Below are positions 1-7,148 of a stretch of DNA of 10,765 nt, one piece after another. Source of the stretch: Candidatus Hadarchaeota archaeon (lineage in GTDB: Archaea > CAYQAE01 > CAYVLA01); NCBI GenBank assembly GCA_964621445.1, contig CAZUNO010000039.1, positions 6,983 through 17,747 on the forward strand, written 5' to 3'. Positions within the stretch are counted from its first letter, which is position 1, and the number at the start of each line of letters is the position of its first letter. The position numbers and the translations under genes were made by a program. The notes below the pieces were generated by a model, which worked only from the letters and a program-made list of their open reading frames with translations, was not told the DNA's origin and did not search any database.

Positions 1-86
1 GGAACATCGATCCACTCGATTGAGACGGCGATTGGAGTTAGCATTAGAGAGAACATTACCAGGAAGGATATGGCAGATAGCTTCAA
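1..86 (-). CDS. 5' end of a secreted/signal-peptide protein gene running off the left edge (partial)
   Basis: TTG at 86-84 opens MKLSAISFLVMFSLMLTPIAVSIEWIDVP..., a basic residue followed by a hydrophobic stretch, as in a signal peptide. Differences from the second copy (3305-3220) are an ATG/TTG swap, three synonymous changes and one Leu/Met change, supporting this frame. Confidence 0.65.
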   Translation of the reverse strand, partial: MKLSAISFLVMFSLMLTPIAVSIEWIDV

Positions 87-134
87 GGGGATTACCGTTA
101 TTTGGGTCTTGATCGTTTTGAAATATTTTATGGG
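1..134. repeat. Direct repeat copy 1 (may extend beyond the window)
   Basis: Aligns without gaps to 3220-3353 (offset 3219). The first 55 bp are identical; I count 14 mismatches over 134 bp by hand. Confidence 0.95.
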
Positions 135-240
135 CTCGTTATCCACTTCAGCGGAGGTCCTCTGATGATTTGGAACCGAAGATATGTATTCCAGAGAGTT
201 GGTGTTGATGCCAGGCCTCGGCGCTTCTTCATAGGGGGCC

Positions 241-402
241 ATGGGAGAAGCATCCAATGAACATTTGTTAGCTATTAAACAAATATTATTTGAGCCAATA
301 ACAGGCTGGATTTTGAAGGAATGGAAAGGTAATCACAGAGACGAACTGAAGGAACAGGGCATTAGCGTCGAGAAGTTAAGAAGGGACGACGTAGATGTTT
401 GA
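241..402 (+). CDS. Small 53-aa ORF; possibly the N-terminal half of a frameshifted gene
   Basis: ATG 241 preceded by AGGGGG; MGEASNEHLLAIKQILFEPITGWILKEWKGNHRDELKEQGISVEKLRRDDVDV*. Its stop overlaps the next TTG (TTGA, 399-402). Not in the supplied ORF track. Confidence 0.45.
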   Translation: MGEASNEHLLAIKQILFEPITGWILKEWKGNHRDELKEQGISVEKLRRDDVDV

Positions 403-560
403 TCCCACGAATCGCAAGAGGAATGTGGGAAGGAATATTAAGGATGAAAGAAAGCAAGTATCGTGCAATGCTGCTTTTCGATAGGAAGAAAATGCAATTA
501 TATTATTTGCCTCCATCAAGGGGGTTCTATTATTATGGTCAATCTGTATATAGGAACTGA
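399..560 (+). CDS. Small basic 53-aa ORF; possibly the C-terminal half of a RelE/ParE-like gene
   Basis: MIPRIARGMWEGILRMKESKYRAMLLFDRKKMQLYYLPPSRGFYYYGQSVYRN* (TTG 399, alternative ATG 423). Stop TGA 558-560 overlaps ATG 560 (TGATG). The RelE resemblance is by eye only. Confidence 0.45.
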   Translation: MIPRIARGMWEGILRMKESKYRAMLLFDRKKMQLYYLPPSRGFYYYGQSVYRN

Positions 561-1045
561 TGAAAGTGGAATGGGGATATCGGGAAATGGAGGAGCACAA
601 GTTCTCGGACATATCGAATAATCTTCATCTAGGGCGAATTGCCAGCAGGATAGCTTGGGCCCTCGAAGATTACCGTGAGGATTCGATTTCAGATTTCCTT
701 GAACGACATGGATCGGCAATCATCGCAGCAAAAAAGCTCGTAGAGAAGATTGAAGAGGGCGCCGATAAGATAAATCGGCCGACGTTGACTGGGGGAGACA
801 TTGTTGAGACAATTGAAGTATATGATAAAGTGGTAGGTACCGGAGGACCTCTTGAGGGTAGCGAGCGTCTTAGTGAGTACAGAGAAACATTGGCCAAGAT
901 GGCACGGGAAGAGAAAGTAGAACTATCAGAAGCTTTAGCTGTCAAGAAATTTTTCTACGAAACAGGCGTTAGATGCTTGAGAGAGGCAAACGAGCATCTC
1001 ACTTCCGATGAAGAGGGGGAGCCAGGTTGGCATCTCCTGATATAG
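560..1045 (+). CDS. Hypothetical acidic, probably alpha-helical protein (161 aa)
   Basis: Long ORF with E/K-rich, protein-like composition; overlaps the next gene by 19 nt. Alternative ATG at 587. No family recognised. Confidence 0.8.
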   Translation: MKVEWGYREMEEHKFSDISNNLHLGRIASRIAWALEDYREDSISDFLERHGSAIIAAKKLVEKIEEGADKINRPTLTGGDIVETIEVYDKVVGTGGPLEGSERLSEYRETLAKMAREEKVELSEALAVKKFFYETGVRCLREANEHLTSDEEGEPGWHLLI

Positions 1046-2457
1046 CCAATATCTCAAAGAATGATTTACTGGCAGATCTTGAATCGTCGCTCCAGAAGTC
1101 TTGGGCTATTCAGGAGAGATTGGATACCCTCACACTTGAGCAGTATCCGACACAAAGTGCCGAAGATCTAATTGGCGCACTCAAAAATATTCTGAAAGTC
1201 ATAGTAACTTCATTGAAGACATGCCATTCGGAGTTGGAAATCGGCCACTTGCAGCCGACAGACGGTCTATCACTCTTCGCGAGGACTCTTAGTGCCTCAA
1301 CGTCGCAGTTGAGCGCCTATTCAAAGTACATTGAGTTCGCGAGAACGGAGGATGTACCTTGGGGAATATCATTTCTGATAGATGGTCTTGTGGTCGAGAA
1401 TTTCGGTGCCAATGCTAGATTCCTTCTTAGGGCTCGCCCAGACTACAACTATAGCTACAACGAATTGCTTGATCAGCTGAAGATACTCGCGGAGGACATG
1501 GAAGCTGGCTTGAGGGAGTTCTTTACTGACAGCCTGGATGTTGATCAGATCGTGGAGGATGTGGAGTCATCGTTGGGAGACCTGGGTGACTACTTCATCG
1601 TTGTGAGTTTTCCCGCTGTCGAACGAGATAACATACTACATCAGTGCCTACTTTTACACGAAGTCGGCCACTTTCTTGACGAATTCTTTAACATATCAAG
1701 ATCTATCAATATATCTATGGATTCTCACATTCCGAGACCTTCCTCGGATGCTGGTTTCAGAGTCAAGAGAGAGCTGCTTTCTAGGGCTTTTCGATGGGTG
1801 AAGGAACTCACGGCTGATCAGTTCGCTTTGGGTCTTGTCGGACCTGCTTTTCTGTCGGCATTCGAGGAACTGACGGTAAATCAGTTCGGATTCGATGAGT
1901 ATAAGCAGACACACCCACCTGTACGGATGCGATTGGATGCAATGCTTAAGCGAATGGAGGGGATGGGGAGTGATTCATCAGATGTTGGAAGCGTAATTCA
2001 GGCGAGGATGATTGAGTTGAAAGACCGTTTAACAAGGAATCCCGAGCCAGCCCTTGAGACACGGGTCGAGATTCTCTCTGGCACGGTCATGGACGTAGTA
2101 GACGAAATAATCGACGAAGTGGAGTCTAAGCTTGGCAACAATTCATTTGATATTAGAGACCATGTGGAAGAGATCGAGGGGCTGAAAACGCGGATATGCT
2201 GGCACATAGCACCCAATGAAAGAGTCTGCGCGGTAGGAAAAAGAAAATTTCAGGCAGATCCAAGGTCTATCCTGAATGCAGGATGGCTAACGATTATTGA
2301 TTCTACCAGATTCGATGTTTTCTGTCGATCGCTGAATTTTGAAGGTATTAAGGGCCGGTGGCTTGCCCGAAAGAAAATCAGCGACCTTGTGAAGAAAGCT
2401 CTTGACAGTATTGAATTCCAGGCATGGTGGGCCAAAATAAGGGAGCGACTCCAATGA
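1027..2457 (+). CDS. Putative soluble zinc metallopeptidase (gluzincin, M48/M56-like motifs), 476 aa
   Basis: HEVGH (HEXXH, nt 1657-1671), downstream ELTADQFA (third-ligand Glu, nt 1804) and THPPVRMR (nt 1909-1932), in the order typical of M48-like peptidases. TTG start preceded by GAGGGGGAG. No evident signal peptide or TM helix. Confidence 0.8.
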   Translation: MASPDIANISKNDLLADLESSLQKSWAIQERLDTLTLEQYPTQSAEDLIGALKNILKVIVTSLKTCHSELEIGHLQPTDGLSLFARTLSASTSQLSAYSKYIEFARTEDVPWGISFLIDGLVVENFGANARFLLRARPDYNYSYNELLDQLKILAEDMEAGLREFFTDSLDVDQIVEDVESSLGDLGDYFIVVSFPAVERDNILHQCLLLHEVGHFLDEFFNISRSINISMDSHIPRPSSDAGFRVKRELLSRAFRWVKELTADQFALGLVGPAFLSAFEELTVNQFGFDEYKQTHPPVRMRLDAMLKRMEGMGSDSSDVGSVIQARMIELKDRLTRNPEPALETRVEILSGTVMDVVDEIIDEVESKLGNNSFDIRDHVEEIEGLKTRICWHIAPNERVCAVGKRKFQADPRSILNAGWLTIIDSTRFDVFCRSLNFEGIKGRWLARKKISDLVKKALDSIEFQAWWAKIRERLQ

Positions 2458-3062
2458 TACTATCCAAAGACATGATCATTTCGAGGCTTTACCACGATGA
2501 TGAAAGTGAACGTCTGACCATCACACCCCTTGATGATATGCAGATTGGCCGCTCTTCGGTGGACCTCCGCTTGTCCAACCGCTTCATAGCAATGGAAAGA
2601 GTGAATTGTGCCACCTACGATCCAAGAGAAGATGACAAGATAGAAGCGTACCAGAAGAAACTGACGGGCCAATATGGCAAGGCTTTGTATATGCATCCCC
2701 ACCAGATTCTTCTAGGTGGAACCGTTGAATATCTTAGACTGCCATACAACCTCTCGGGCGAAGTCATAGGAAAGAGCTCTTGGGGAAGGCTGGGGGTGAT
2801 AGTTGCCACAGCAACGAGAGTATGGCCAAAATATGCAGGCATTCTCACATTGGAACTCATCAACAGTGGCGAGGTTCCAGTAGCGCTATATCCAGGAAGT
2901 GAGATCGTGCAGATGGCGTTTCGGGAATCCAAGGTCTCAGAAAATGAGCAATCAAGAAGTGACAAGCTGGAAGTAGGTAAATACTCATGTTCCATAGAAC
3001 CTGGCTTCAGTCGTCTGAGCGATGATCCTTTCTGGCGTGGACTGAGGGAGGGTTCCATGTGA
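2454..3062 (+). CDS. dcd: dCTP deaminase-like protein (trimeric dUTPase fold), divergent, 202 aa
   Basis: MILS start, SVDLRL, TVEYLRLP, GKSSWGRLG, LTLELIN..PVALYPG..IVQM and a C-terminal GKY...SR match Dcd motifs. Start placed at 2454 because of the ATGA overlap with the upstream stop and the family-typical N-terminus. The DPG motif reads WPK. Confidence 0.9.
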   Translation: MILSKDMIISRLYHDDESERLTITPLDDMQIGRSSVDLRLSNRFIAMERVNCATYDPREDDKIEAYQKKLTGQYGKALYMHPHQILLGGTVEYLRLPYNLSGEVIGKSSWGRLGVIVATATRVWPKYAGILTLELINSGEVPVALYPGSEIVQMAFRESKVSENEQSRSDKLEVGKYSCSIEPGFSRLSDDPFWRGLREGSM

Positions 3063-3128: not shown

Positions 3129-3305
3129 TTAATCGAACCTATCCACGAGGTGGGCTCCGTCGGAGGCGGTCAGCACCCAGATTTTCCCGGGGTCCTGGAA
3201 GAGGGCCACCGCCTCGTGGGGAACATCGATCCACTCGATTGAGACGGCGATTGGAGTTAGCATTAGAGAGAACAGGACCAGAAAGGATATGGCGGATAGC
3301 TTCAT
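3129..3305 (-). pseudogene. 58-aa signal-peptide ORF, probably a truncated copy of the gene starting at 86
   Basis: MKLSAISFLVLFSLMLTPIAVSIEWIDVPHEAVALFQDPGKIWVLTASDGAHLVDRFD*. AAGGT lies upstream of the ATG. Third codon positions are GC-rich like the core genes, ending abruptly at AT-rich DNA near 3130. Confidence 0.55.
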
Positions 3306-3353
3306 GGGGATTACCTTTAGTGGGATCTGGATTATTCTGAAATATCTTATGGG
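3220..3353. repeat. Direct repeat copy 2
   Basis: Matches 1-134; covers the upstream region and first ~29 codons of the minus-strand ORF. Confidence 0.95.
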
Positions 3354-3649
3354 TAAGTATGGGGCGAATGCCTACTATTCCTAGGGAGTTCGAGGGCAAT
3401 GGGTTGAAGTAGGTAACAGGTCTTGAGAAATTACTATTGGAGGGAAAGGTATGGTATAGTTAGTATCGCTACGAGATTCTAGAATAGGAATTGTCCACTC
3501 CTCTTCCTTTTTCATGGCGGATTCATTTTGGTAATAAACCAATTAGCTAGCTAAAAGAGAAGGATCTTGATAATTTAGATCCAATGGGATGCTTGCTTTA
3601 ATTCCATCAATATCTTAAGATGGGGATGATGAAATGGGCAGGGCTAGAA

Positions 3650-3669
3650 GTGAAAAAGTGAAAAAATAA
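3650..3669 (-). terminator. Possible oligo-U terminator for the minus-strand 2-TM gene
   Basis: Minus strand reads TTATTTTTTCACTTTTTCAC about 100 nt after the stop at 3772. U-tracts terminate archaeal transcription, but the region is generally AT-rich. Confidence 0.25.
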
Positions 3670-3771
3670 GCACGGTCATAGTAATACTCTGGCCCTATGT
3701 GTTAGCATTTAACCCGGCCTTCGAGCGGTTTACCGAATACTCGATGATTAATAAGGCTAGAGACCTTGCTT

Positions 3772-4998
3772 TTATTCCATTACTTTATATACTCCTTGAG
3801 TGATTCTCTGATAGTTCCTGGCAATGGATACTCCAATGAGATAGACAAGCCCCATGGAAGTCATGTAGGCCAGAACGATGAGGCCAGCTACAAGGCAGAT
3901 TTTCGTCAAGGAATTTATGGCTGGTGCTTGTTCAATACACTTGGTCAAAGCCTTTGAGACGCCCATTACAAAATAATTTAACATATCAAGTTCCAGGACT
4001 GATGCCCAGACGGCTATTGCAACTGAGAGCCCAGCACCAAGAAATCCTAGTGAAATTAATAACTGGGTTTGTCCAAATGAACCATATAGGTCTGCCATAT
4101 CTTCATACCAGTTTTCCTTGATTTCAAGTCCTTTTAGGAAATTGTTACCGTCTTCCGCGGGATCATAGGAGAAATATCTTCGACATTTGGAAAGAAAGGA
4201 ATCTAGGAATACCTGTATGCCCATTGCATTAATTGATCGTGAATGAGTACGTGCTAAATTCATTCGGGTTTCCATAATTTCCTTCAGAGTGGAAATAGAT
4301 TTTGGGAATAGCCAACCCCATGGAGGGCCTTGGGATTGCTCTTGAATTAATTGGGACTGGTTTCGAGTTTCTTGAGTTTGTCCTGAACTACGTTCTAAAC
4401 GGGAATTTATGTAATTCTTTAAATTGAATGCTAATCGTAGAACCAATTTCTTTATCTTTGGTGGGTACTCCACCAAAAACCTTGGCATATACTTCCCGGA
4501 AAATCCTAAGTTTTCATAAATTTCTGTCTGGCGCGTAAGGTCCCTTATCATCCTAACACGCCAAGTTACCCGAACTTTGAACTGGTCGTTAAATTCGTTT
4601 ACGTATCTATCATGGAGATGAGCTGCAACTTTGTCCAACATATCCTCATTAAAACTGCCAAAATAGCAGAAGTCAGGCCTGAGCTGATGGGGGAAAAGAT
4701 GTCTATGCACTGCCTTCTTAATTGGGATATATATCTCTGTAAAAAAGTCATTCTTAATATAAGCTGAGGGATTCCCGTTCTTTGTCTCTACAAAAACAAA
4801 ACCCCCTTCATGAATTACAAGAATACTATCATCCAAAGATAGATTTTTGCTTAGGTTCTTGATGGGTTCATATTTCCGGTTCTCGTTTTTGGGCAGGCAT
4901 GGGTCCTTGAGTTTAAAACAAATATATTCGCCCTCTAGACATTTTTTGAGTGCATAACCGTTTGGTATCTTTTGTTCCGACTTTTCAACAAAAAGCAT
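3772..4998 (-). CDS. Hypothetical membrane protein: large soluble region plus two C-terminal TM helices (408 aa; true N-terminus probably in 4935-5087)
   Basis: Long ORF with hydrophobic segments LLISLGFLGAGLSVAIAVWASVL and ICLVAGLIVLAYMTSMGLVYLIGVSI and a Q-rich linker. No convincing SD at ATG 4998. Confidence 0.8.
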   Translation of the reverse strand: MLFVEKSEQKIPNGYALKKCLEGEYICFKLKDPCLPKNENRKYEPIKNLSKNLSLDDSILVIHEGGFVFVETKNGNPSAYIKNDFFTEIYIPIKKAVHRHLFPHQLRPDFCYFGSFNEDMLDKVAAHLHDRYVNEFNDQFKVRVTWRVRMIRDLTRQTEIYENLGFSGKYMPRFLVEYPPKIKKLVLRLAFNLKNYINSRLERSSGQTQETRNQSQLIQEQSQGPPWGWLFPKSISTLKEIMETRMNLARTHSRSINAMGIQVFLDSFLSKCRRYFSYDPAEDGNNFLKGLEIKENWYEDMADLYGSFGQTQLLISLGFLGAGLSVAIAVWASVLELDMLNYFVMGVSKALTKCIEQAPAINSLTKICLVAGLIVLAYMTSMGLVYLIGVSIARNYQRITQGVYKVME

Positions 4999-5087
4999 TT
5001 TTTGGATAATTCCCGAATTCTATGGAAATCTTCTTTTGAGAAGAAATGGAGCATCGGCACCCAGTGTGCATATAAGAGGCTCACCAA
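4935..5087 (-). CDS. 50-aa ORF with strong SD; likely the frameshifted N-terminus of 3772-4998
   Basis: AGGAGG (5098-5093) lies 5 nt before TTG 5087 and 8 nt before GTG 5084; MVSLLYAHWVPMLHFFSKEDFHRIRELSKKCFLLKSRNKRYQTVMHSKNV*. The downstream ORF is in the -1 frame and overlaps it. Confidence 0.5.
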   Translation of the reverse strand: MVSLLYAHWVPMLHFFSKEDFHRIRELSKKCFLLKSRNKRYQTVMHSKNV

Positions 5088-5105
5088 GGTGTCCTCCTGG
5101 AATTC

Positions 5106-5480
5106 TTACATGGTGGTCATGATCATATCTGTGTCAATGGCCTTTCCTTCTACTTTATTATCATACCCTCTGGTTACTCTCCTAATGACTTTGTACTCTT
5201 CCATTCCGAGGTCCGAAACAGAGAAACGGAGGGGAGATTCAACTACCATTTCAACGGCATTATCACCAACAAGGGCATATAAATTAGACTCAAGGCCCTT
5301 TTCTAGGTCATCTTCAAAAGAGAATTTCACCTTGTCGAAAGGATTGGGTAGTTTCTGAAGTCCGCCATTTTCAATATCCTTTCTAATTTCTTGGAGCGTT
5401 TTGGGCTTTTTTTGCGTGGCTAGGTATACTAGAAGCAATTCCAAATCCGTCAACTTTAGTTCCCCTGATTCTAGAGCCAT
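5106..5480 (-). CDS. Small hypothetical protein, possibly winged helix-turn-helix (124 aa; 131 aa from ATG 5501)
   Basis: LTDLELLLVYL..KPKTLQEIRKDI and FSVSDLGMEEY resemble the first helices and wing end of wHTH domains. GGAGGG 8 nt before ATG 5480 favours this start. Confidence 0.65.
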   Translation of the reverse strand: MALESGELKLTDLELLLVYLATQKKPKTLQEIRKDIENGGLQKLPNPFDKVKFSFEDDLEKGLESNLYALVGDNAVEMVVESPLRFSVSDLGMEEYKVIRRVTRGYDNKVEGKAIDTDMIMTTM

Positions 5481-5865
5481 TCTTCTATCCCTCCATTCCA
5501 TAGTAAATTATTATATCAAGTGCGATTTGATCTTGGAGATATATCTGAGCGATGAAGCCATATCTATGTATTTGGTACAATTATCAATAATGAAAATAAA
5601 CACATTATTGATATGCTTCAAACCTCCTATTAAACTATTTGTCATTGATTGGAATGTAGTCCTCCGAATGCTGCCCATGCTATATCCTGGATAAAGAATG
5701 ATATTTTATCATCATTTTAACTCTTAACTATATCCTAATAACCAGGTTTTTCTGTGTAAATTTCTTAGATTTAATTCGTATGCCCATCCTTTAACCATCG
5801 AGTCGATAATGATATGAAATGACAGCCCTTTGGGACGAAAGATGAGCCTAATAAATGATCATTAT

Positions 5866-5903: not shown

Positions 5904-7148
5904 ATGCCTCGCGAATTCTTTAGAATCCTCCTCCTGGCGTTCCTGGTCCTAATCCTGGCCACGGCTCGGGGCCAGAGGATCAAGGCACTGGTAACCGGAA
6001 AGGTGGATGCGGAGACCAACCCCCTTATCAAGTGGTTCGAACAGGAGCCATCTGTGGATGCGACCGCGGTCATAACCAGGCCAAGCGGTCTGATAAAGAC
6101 CAGGGACATCCAGAGATTCGTGAGGCTCTACTTTCCAAGAAACTATCAGCAGCTCAAAGAATACGAGTTCATACTTCTCCATTCCCCCGAGATGTACCAC
6201 CTCACCAGGGAGCAGGATCGCTGGATGCACGACGCCATCCTGGAGGGTTCTGGTGGCCTGGCCGCTCCCGCCGGGCTAAGCGACCACGTAGATATCCAGA
6301 ATGCCTGGATCAACTCCATGGTCCAAAAAGCCCTGCCCAACGACTTTGAATCCGTGATTGCCAGTGGAGGCCGCAGGGGTCAGACCCCCTTCCACATAGA
6401 GGTTAACCGTGATTTCCCGGAGCCGGTCCTGACCCCATTCGTACCCCTGGGGATCGAGAGCTTCCCTGGAGCCGGCGGCAACATGATAATCGGTAGGGAG
6501 GGTAGCGCCATCCTTGCATGGCAGATCGGCGACTCTCTGGGAAGGGTTCCCTATATGATTGCCTGGGATTACGGCCAGGGAAGGGGCATGACCCTGGCCG
6601 ATTCCCTCCACCTTACCTTCTGGAGCGATTACATCTCCCTGAGCAACCCGGCATATGATGCCTCCCAGAATCCCTACGGTCTGGATATACTGATGAACAT
6701 GGTTCTGTACCTGACCCGAAGGGACCTTCCAACCGAGGTCCTCGTCCTTCACAAGATCAGGAACTCCTTCGTGAAGTACAGGACCCAGATGTCCCTCCTT
6801 GTCTCGCTGGCCGATTTCGCTCAGAAATTCGGGGCCGATAGCAGTCAGATGTGGGATTTGGTGTCCCCCATTAGCGATAAGGCCGAACGGGCCGAGGAGA
6901 TGTATATGGAACAGGATTTTCAGGGCTGTCAGCAGCTCATGGACTCGATTTTCGATGATCTATCCCAGGCCGAGTTGCGGGTTATCAGCATGAAGGAGAG
7001 GGCCCTAATGTGGGTCTATGTGGCGGAGGGGCTAACAATCACCGCCGTATTCATGGTCTCCAGCTTCGTTCTATGGACGGTGATGGTCAGGAGAAGGTTG
7101 TACCGGACGGTTGGGGCCAGCCAGCTCGAGCGAAGGGAAGGCAAGTAG
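5904..7148 (+). CDS. Membrane-anchored extracellular protein, possibly class I glutamine amidotransferase-like fold (414 aa)
   Basis: N-terminal signal peptide (RILLLAFLVLILATARG); alpha/beta core (YEFILL, ILEGSGGL, AWDYGQGRGMT); helical stalk; C-terminal TM helix followed by RRRLYR; GC-rich third positions. Fold call is by resemblance. Confidence 0.8.
   Translation: MPREFFRILLLAFLVLILATARGQRIKALVTGKVDAETNPLIKWFEQEPSVDATAVITRPSGLIKTRDIQRFVRLYFPRNYQQLKEYEFILLHSPEMYHLTREQDRWMHDAILEGSGGLAAPAGLSDHVDIQNAWINSMVQKALPNDFESVIASGGRRGQTPFHIEVNRDFPEPVLTPFVPLGIESFPGAGGNMIIGREGSAILAWQIGDSLGRVPYMIAWDYGQGRGMTLADSLHLTFWSDYISLSNPAYDASQNPYGLDILMNMVLYLTRRDLPTEVLVLHKIRNSFVKYRTQMSLLVSLADFAQKFGADSSQMWDLVSPISDKAERAEEMYMEQDFQGCQQLMDSIFDDLSQAELRVISMKERALMWVYVAEGLTITAVFMVSSFVLWTVMVRRRLYRTVGASQLERREGK

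Follow-up and report, generated by a model that had tools for sequence, protein, structure and literature searches.

A dCTP deaminase subtype coupled to a predicted M48-like zincin and a helical partner in an apparently acquired archaeal cassette: a possible conflict module

We analyzed a 10,765-nucleotide (nt) stretch of DNA from a Candidatus Hadarchaeota archaeon (assembly GCA_964621445.1, contig CAZUNO010000039.1, positions 6,983–17,747, forward strand), hereafter the window. Its left part carries a chain of overlapping open reading frames (ORFs), the last three of which encode an acidic helical protein, a predicted zincin and a dCTP deaminase (Dcd), and recur together in other genomes. The initial annotation, made from the letters alone, had described an unbroken five-ORF chain at 241–3062, and all of its coordinates and overlaps were reproduced by the ORF listing. 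The features are given below in window coordinates (aa, amino acids).

241–402, plus strand: ORF1, 53 aa, acidic; start of the overlapping chain
399–560, plus strand: ORF2, 53 aa, basic; TTGA overlap with ORF1; doubtful gene
560–1045, plus strand: ORF3 (subunit A), 161 aa, acidic, helical; TGATG overlap with ORF2
1027–2457, plus strand: ORF4 (subunit B), 476 aa, predicted M48-like zincin; 19-nt overlap with ORF3
2454–3062, plus strand: ORF5 (subunit C), 202 aa, dCTP deaminase; ATGA overlap with ORF4
1–134, no strand: direct repeat copy A, the right-hand 134 nt of ~221 nt, continuing left across a scaffold gap
3133–3353, no strand: direct repeat copy B, full 221 nt
3129–3305, minus strand: truncated 5' fragment of a GH9 gene, 58 codons, dead, within copy B

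An earlier ATG exists for ORF5 at 2424; the N-termini of its homologues agree with 2454.

The Dcd subtype of ORF5 was scanned for in one genome per species, and of 328 confirmed stretches the 80 best loci entered the comparison. Two metagenome scans with the Dcd yielded no relative. A gene of the ORF4 family lay directly upstream of the Dcd gene and on the same strand in 51 of the 80 loci and was fused to it in three, giving a total of 54/80 in Archaea and Bacteria. Our script returned 50 adjacent and 3 fused cases; one locus (L073), missed through an over-long ORF call, was added by eye. Among the 26 loci without the zincin, 23 formed one Bacillota/Sulfobacillus clade and two had too little upstream DNA. 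A ~270-aa ORF upstream of the Sulfobacillus Dcd was considered as a zincin remnant, which was not demonstrable (hhalign 2.3%). A C-terminal PF22769 domain, the family to which ORF5 belongs, was found in 14/14 ORF4 homologues of 599–931 aa and in 0/7 of 403–575 aa (21 scanned). In public records, the zincin is a "hypothetical protein" and the zincin–Dcd fusions are "dCTP deaminase". The Freyarchaeia zincin has ~605 codons, and its first ~150 residues matched the ORF3 family (hhalign 96.4%, E 1.4e-9); together with the zincin–Dcd fusions, this means that A–B and B–C fusions both exist. The genes of the module overlapped by a few to ~36 nt throughout. Comparison of the loci thus shows ORF3, ORF4 and ORF5 to be conserved together as a three-gene unit, with overlaps indicative of translational coupling and with products fused pairwise. 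Judged from the alignments, the catalytic motifs of both enzymes are kept wherever the module is patchily distributed. The coupling of peptidase and Dcd that the initial annotation had noticed in one stretch is therefore a conserved one.

We co-folded ORF3 with ORF4. The median interaction prediction score from aligned errors (ipSAE) was 0.64, and that of the best of three controls was 0.00. In the calibration of the tool, 58/80 solved complexes and 2/110 mismatched pairs attained this mark; as the co-fold used our own alignments, these figures apply only approximately. The runs had at least 28% of contacts in common, with a predicted local distance difference test (pLDDT) score of at least 59 for the partner. 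The predicted interface joins ORF3 residues 16–36, 50–56 and 133–147 to ORF4 helices 78–97 and 150–165. The model thus places ORF3 on the N-terminal helical bundle and not at the HExxH site. It had been suggested that the upstream proteins are substrates of the peptidase. This placement of ORF3 speaks against that idea, as does the lack of conservation of ORF1 and ORF2 described below. We also considered that there is no functional link at all and that an ordinary dcd lies by chance beside an unrelated protease gene. Adjacency in 54/80 loci over two domains of life, two kinds of fusion and the co-fold make such a coincidence hardly credible.

No family match was found for ORF4 in Pfam, NCBIfam, PHROGs or PADLOC. 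An exhaustive HMMER search recovered a family of 639 cluster representatives at E ≤0.001, 135 of them at ≤1e-10. Across 81 aligned members, H211, E212, E260, D264, P297 and R302 were invariant, and G214, H215 (at least 90%) and G272–P273 were nearly so. H211, E212 and H215 make up the HEVGH motif of ORF4, and E260 is probably a zinc ligand. The AlphaFold2 model was all-helical (pLDDT 95.2, predicted TM score 0.93) and comprised an N-terminal helical bundle (~1–185), a small core (~186–310) of a strand and two helices bearing HExxH and E260, and a C-terminal helical domain. Against Peptidase_M48 (PF01435), ORF4 scored 15.6 bits (E 0.015), under the gathering score of 20.3, and 17/81 family members had weak matches to that family (best 5.2e-5). 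When residues 186–476 were folded separately, the sole non-generic structural match was ZMPSTE24 (6bh8_A; Z 5.1, root-mean-square deviation 4.5, 107 aligned, 21% identity), over residues 186–307. Foldseek searches of the Protein Data Bank (PDB) with the complete model and with the 186–476 model returned no match at E ≤0.001, and a profile search found no relative of ORF4 among PDB sequences. No membrane-strength hydrophobic segment was present in ORF4 (top 19-residue Kyte–Doolittle mean, 1.39).

These results describe ORF4 as a soluble M48-like zincin, as predicted from its motif and model; formal membership of M48 is not established. Like M48 enzymes (Ste24/ZMPSTE24, HtpX), it has HExxH followed by a Glu in the long helix that comes next; unlike them, it is soluble and flanked by two large helical domains without a clear structural relative. 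Pfam M78 (PF06114) and U49 (PF10463) were not among the top 25 families shown for the 81 members at E ≤1, and an ESM Atlas lead (0.79) pointed to clusters with 12–23% Peptidase_U49 members. With the whole model, VIA-align gave generic helical bundles only, all matched to residues 2–195 (Z ≤10.6, below the helical noise level of the tool). They included the MLKL four-helix bundle (Z 9.1), talin, THATCH and CAMP factor, and a pore-forming role of the N-terminal bundle was not deduced from them. HExxH was retained in 34/55 ORF4-family ORFs; the other 21, some of them fragments, were without the motif. It was deleted or altered in Armatimonadota loci, in L019 (DEFGH) and in L021 (HEIGQ).

ORF3 has an isoelectric point (pI) of 4.9. 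Direct searches revealed no relatives of it: the homologue search gave its own record only, and ESM Atlas gave nothing. When ORF3 was compared with a profile of 26 equivalently placed ORFs, hhalign gave a probability of 95.8% (E 7e-9, residues 12–159). By this profile match, ORF3 is a member of an unnamed helical family encoded directly upstream of the zincin gene and overlapping it. The conserved C-terminal Trp of this family was considered as a peptidase-substrate tail and rejected, because NTG-G at the start codon of the overlapping zincin gene reads as TGG in the ORF3 frame; the overlaps of 24–36 nt fit. A 155-aa ORF upstream of a prophage copy of the module (L087) was considered as ORF3-like and rejected as well (hhalign 0.3%).

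The two ORFs at the head of the chain behaved differently. ORF1 had one homologue among the 80 loci, located in L055 upstream of an ORF3-like gene (38% identity over 37 aa), and jackhmmer found no further one in the 80 loci; it is possibly a real small gene, but not a general part of the module. ORF2 had no homologue in the 80 loci and no family match in Pfam, NCBIfam, PHROGs or PADLOC. In a contig from a related strain (run X4 of a second study), scattered small deletions occurred at 390–399, over the ORF2 start. PADLOC, PHROGs and NCBIfam returned nothing for any of ORF1–ORF4. Therefore, the conserved chain is ORF3–ORF4–ORF5.

ORF5 matched PF22769 at 3e-30 (105.7 bits; threshold, 27) and scored above the cut-off of the NCBIfam equivalog TIGR02274 (112.2 vs 92.8 bits); its Pfam matches were limited to DCD/dUTPase families, and its nearest PHROG was a phage dCTP deaminase family. 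S108, S109, R112 and E134 were invariant in 25 aligned Dcds of the subtype, including ORF5. These are the Ser/Arg (GRSS..R.G) and Glu (TLE) positions, which have catalytic roles in E. coli Dcd. The subtype signature is a GRSSWGRLG-type motif together with TLELxN. In a quick maximum-likelihood tree, the module-type Dcds, with ORF5 on a long branch, stood apart from the canonical Dcds that the same genomes encode (Shimodaira–Hasegawa-like approximate likelihood ratio test, 99). By these sequence criteria, ORF5 is predicted to be an active dCTP deaminase with the trimeric dUTPase fold, and it belongs to a distinct subtype. It resembles housekeeping Dcd and bifunctional Dcd-Dut (TIGR02274, PF22769) in score, in the Ser/Arg/Glu positions and in fold family; unlike housekeeping Dcd, it falls in a separate clade, has a zincin and a helical protein as coupled or fused partners, and is patchily distributed. 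The characters first given to the three products, namely an acidic protein, a soluble zinc peptidase and a Dcd, agree with these results. In a Terriglobia metagenome-assembled genome (MAG), the module Dcd (L039, 1489–2814, plus strand) has 441 codons, about twice the usual length, and forms an extremely long tip in the tree.

The source genome contains three DCD-family genes including ORF5, and ORF5 is thus not its only dcd, as the initial annotation had required to be checked. The second, of 180 aa, lies beside rpl3 and serS and is likely the housekeeping Dcd. The third, of 203 aa (contig C41, 12655–13062; L003, 1300–1911, minus strand), matched PF22769 at 1.3e-20 and has a ~50-residue C-terminal extension, with GRMGLRSKFTRKG in place of GRSS..R.G and SLSLFN in place of TLELxN. 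Its catalytic Glu is apparently replaced, and it may be a non-catalytic Dcd-like protein. Near these DCD loci lie three paralogous proteins without a Pfam match (window 5904–7148, plus strand; L004 2397–3662, plus strand; L003 2647–3384, minus strand), which have in common a C-terminal membrane anchor with a basic ...MV(R/K)RRLY end.

ORF1–ORF5 are placed exactly between repeat copies A and B. The repeat (1–134 and 3220–3353) was 90% identical, with no further copy in the 3.2-Mb assembly. A 100-N scaffold gap lies directly left of the window, and 87 nt beyond the gap match 3133–3219 at 93%, indicating that the repeat is really ~221 nt long; in the X4 contig, which is 90–95% alike, one part of copy A runs directly into the other. 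The repeat consists of the promoter/upstream region and the first ~58 codons of the adjacent minus-strand GH9 gene, and copy A heads the intact gene, which encodes an 880-aa secreted glycosidase. G+C content was 0.41–0.48 across 1–3000 (the cassette), 0.35–0.42 on to ~5750 and 0.55–0.61 past 5750, compared with 0.517 for the genome. The AT-richer DNA between direct repeats that had been reported was thus confirmed. The ORF list and Pfam revealed no integrase or replication gene among the cassette ORFs, and no tRNA or Rfam family was found in the window. A scan for sigma-70 promoters and terminators did no better than on shuffled DNA; the sigma-70 model is unsuited to an archaeon. Right of copy B, at 3354–5750, G+C is even lower than in the cassette, and the acquired island may exceed the cassette; the minus-strand ORFs at 3772–4998 (408 aa) and 5106–5501 (131 aa) have no Pfam, NCBIfam, PHROGs or PADLOC family.

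In two runs of one study, public contigs covered 77–87% of the sampled words of the window at a depth of ~3–7; no RNA data set was listed for it. A 761-nt contig from run X2 leads from the 3' end of the cassette (2607) through a hybrid repeat, copy-B-like at left and copy-A-like from 3275 on, to 14 letters identical to 135–148, the 5' start of the cassette. Such a joint would arise if the cassette were excised as a circle or present in tandem, and the contig is a hint of this; the switch falls inside 55 nt exactly common to both copies, and a de Bruijn-graph chimera is therefore equally possible. Another contig of run X4 differs by 1 nt in 243 over 812–1054, the 3' part of ORF3, and continues with unrelated letters from 1054, just inside ORF4; the sequences may have recombined at this point, or a related strain may carry another allele of the zincin gene.

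The cassette is also rare among relatives. No ORF4 homologue was found in the three same-family genomes, which are ~55% identical in the neighboring GH9 protein and too distant for an empty-site comparison, and one weak match (E 1.7e-5) occurred among the 60 relatives searched. Low G+C, the repeats and this rarity give the cassette an acquired look. It is an extra Dcd copy in a low-GC, repeat-bounded, apparently acquired insert. Elsewhere, the module was found in 24 Solirubrobacterales species, although a sample of 120 further genomes from the order to which G062 (Solirubrobacterales chromosome) belongs gave one weak match. Within ±5 kb, the flanks of these 24 loci were mostly unrelated, and 11/24 had no flank homologue in any other. 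Near-identical fused zincin–Dcd proteins occur in a Planctomycetota MAG (L021) and a Hydrothermarchaeales MAG (L022), with branch lengths of 0.14 and 0.02 and a common downstream homologue, which reflects either a very recent cross-domain transfer or a binning error. L076, labelled Acidobacteriaceae, nests within the Solirubrobacterales clade, for which the same two explanations may apply.

The operon is compact and translationally coupled and moves by itself into different surroundings; it could therefore also be a selfish, addiction-type module, in which the Dcd is a toxin checked by ORF3 and ORF4 in the manner of a toxin–antitoxin or toxin–antitoxin–chaperone system and toxicity arises through loss of dCTP and uracil in DNA; alternatively, it could be a virus-derived auxiliary set by which a virus or provirus remodels the deoxynucleoside triphosphate (dNTP) pool. 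The bounding of the insert by repeats, the X2 joint and the phage family nearest to ORF5 are in keeping with this explanation, as is the copy in a P2-like prophage (L087), where the zincin–Dcd pair has integrase/regulators on one side and, on the other, genes for a Gp49-like toxin, its antidote, the portal and the large terminase. P2-like phages have a defence hotspot between gpA and the portal gene gpQ, according to two papers (PMC9122126, PMC13586616). The L087 pair is cos-proximal cargo next to the portal gene, near the gpA–gpQ hotspot; no gpA gene was seen in 10.5 kb. However, L087 was the only one of 21 viral-contig Dcd loci with the zincin. By tblastn, ORF4 had no match in 50,697 phage or 72,556 plasmid records, and the L087 zincin had none in the 50,697 phage records. 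The cassette, moreover, has no integrase or replication gene, and the circular-looking joint may be an assembly chimera. We regard a selfish or viral origin as improbable.

We hypothesized instead that the module forms a dCTP deaminase complex under protease control, which serves in conflict with, or defence against, viruses or other mobile elements, and we hold this reading to be quite possible, its chances falling a little short of even. The products of ORF3, ORF4 and ORF5 would form one complex, the output of which would be the Dcd trimer, converting dCTP to dUTP. Unrestrained, the Dcd would exhaust dCTP, DNA replication would be starved of it, and dUTP would accumulate in the cell. The zincin and the helical subunit would gate the deaminase on a signal, most plausibly virus infection. 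In Jordarchaeia and some Armatimonadota, the peptidase motif has decayed and the module apparently persists as a Dcd that is resident and regulated. On this view, the forms in Asgard archaea and Armatimonadota would be domesticated, protease-dead descendants, or the order of events would be the reverse.

A nucleotide-depletion conflict module is favored because dCTP depletion by defensive dCTP deaminases stops phage replication, as stated by Tal et al. (bioRxiv 10.1101/2021.04.26.441389). According to the same preprint, the E. coli defensive dCTP deaminase has a zinc cytosine-deaminase domain and an N-terminal kinase domain in one gene, which agrees with the earlier statement that the described defensive enzyme is of a different fold. 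The module would resemble the E. coli enzyme and AvcD in the proposed removal of dCTP from the virus and in an activity held off until infection; in contrast, ORF5 has the PF22769 trimeric dUTPase fold and two protein partners, and defence by the module is proposed only. The defence and mobile-element neighbors of the module are varied. L018 (Bacteroidota) lies beside a type IIG restriction-modification enzyme and a SocA-type antitoxin, L055 beside E1/E2 and a CapH-like helix-turn-helix protein, L076 beside a ThiF/E1-like gene, L021 beside a HEPN/MNT pair, L035 beside a methylase and a PDC-S69-like nuclease, and L013 beside IS110 and IS66 transposases. AvcD of Vibrio is reportedly a defensive dCTP deaminase of the zinc cytosine-deaminase and kinase kind.

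Several results weigh against a role in conflict, and most of them suit its main rival, a regulated metabolic holoenzyme in which the Dcd would serve dNTP homeostasis (dUMP/dTTP supply), with ORF3 and ORF4 as regulatory or assembly subunits and a peptidase acting in maturation or turnover of the enzyme; the window copy would be a dcd gained by horizontal transfer, the second or third of its genome. An ORF4 homologue was present in 10/11 genomes of the class to which G061 belongs (Jordarchaeia/Freyarchaeia, Asgard), and the module was syntenic with genes for a TGS GTPase, SpoU and THUMP methyltransferases and ribosomal protein L10e. The near-core module and the loss of HExxH coincide in the same loci of this class; HExxH was absent in all 10 Jord/Frey/L007 loci, indicating that proteolysis is not always required. 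The zincin motif is dispensable in several lineages in which the Dcd motifs are intact, and the Bacillota clade of 23 loci has related Dcds of the subtype that work without any zincin. We also checked the Dcd copies in ten genomes; nine have the zincin–Dcd pair, and the tenth, a Sulfobacillus (G065), has only the Dcd subtype. The module Dcd was the sole PF22769 match in G062 and G070, and in G064, G067 and G065 the only other match was weak and short; the cases of G064 and G067 likewise speak for metabolism. Nucleotide-metabolism neighbors were found in 4/21 sampled loci: a canonical, divergent dcd beside L019 and L028, dUTPase_2 and PyrI beside L025, and a deoxynucleoside kinase (dNK) beside L032. 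Defence or mobile neighbors occurred in only ~5–6 of the 21 sampled loci, a figure without a background rate. That ORF5 passes the TIGR02274 cut-off suits the metabolic explanation, too. PADLOC (2023 models) matched none of the five ORFs.

On the other hand, a metabolic holoenzyme does not readily explain the extreme rarity and patchiness of the module outside the Asgard class, the unrelated flanks among Solirubrobacterales loci, or the instances that are prophage cargo, flanked by insertion sequences or adjacent to restriction-modification genes. The source genome has other Dcd genes, and strong second Dcds exist at least in G063, G066, G068 and G069 (G061 has a 173-aa copy). That HExxH...E does not vary among the 81 aligned members suggests that catalysis is under selection. 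We judge the metabolic explanation to be the strongest rival, less likely than a role in conflict. As to the two loci with a divergent dcd, both from Bathyarchaeia, the canonical gene of 164–168 aa lies directly upstream of the module (L019 3189–3695, minus strand; L028 3394–3888, minus strand); the two Dcd types are neighbors and may share a control region.

The earlier claim of an antiviral module therefore stands in part. The coupling and the acquired insert agree with it; the antiviral role itself is set against the few defence or mobile neighbors, the nucleotide-metabolism neighbors and the near-core Asgard class with a dead zincin. A more specific form of the conflict reading is an unrecognised immune complex, perhaps (A–B–C)3 on the Dcd trimer, in which the peptidase and a helical sensor would unleash the deaminase on infection, and which would have spread horizontally through Archaea and Bacteria and become domesticated, protease-dead, in Jordarchaeia. 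This form we put forward tentatively. Other explanations have a small chance, slightly below that of a selfish or viral module. No named system corresponding to the module was found in PADLOC or the literature, as the initial annotation had stated; no Dcd-fold deaminase coupled to a metallopeptidase was described in the article texts searched, few of them from subscription journals.

The conflict reading has parallels in idea. ImmA/ImmR, CapP/CapH and Lit of prophage e14 are conflict systems that a zinc peptidase switches or carries out; the module would be similar in this respect, and it differs in having no helix-turn-helix repressor partner, its partner being a nucleotide enzyme. A trimeric dUTPase is the signalling partner of the Stl repressor of staphylococcal pathogenicity islands, for which the phage-encoded dUTPase is the trigger. 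There, too, a trimeric dUTPase-fold protein takes part in mobile-element conflict, through protein–protein contact; unlike that case, the Dcd belongs to the module itself and its catalytic residues are kept.

That viruses are countered by nucleotide depletion is well established, both in bacteria and, with SAMHD1, in humans, and few defence systems of archaea have been tested. Attack on or control of the nucleotide pool by a deaminase is of an already known kind; the build from two unnamed families is apparently new. If the conflict reading is true, the module would add a second, unrelated fold for dCTP removal and a protease-based layer of control to nucleotide depletion, and it would be a candidate defence system for archaea. 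Whatever its role, two unnamed families, the ORF4 zincin and its helical partner ORF3, are defined here and tied to a Dcd subtype of its own, for which the present database label is just "dCTP deaminase". The protease-dead form that is near-core in one Asgard class offers a natural comparison for the passage of an accessory module into a housekeeping regulator.

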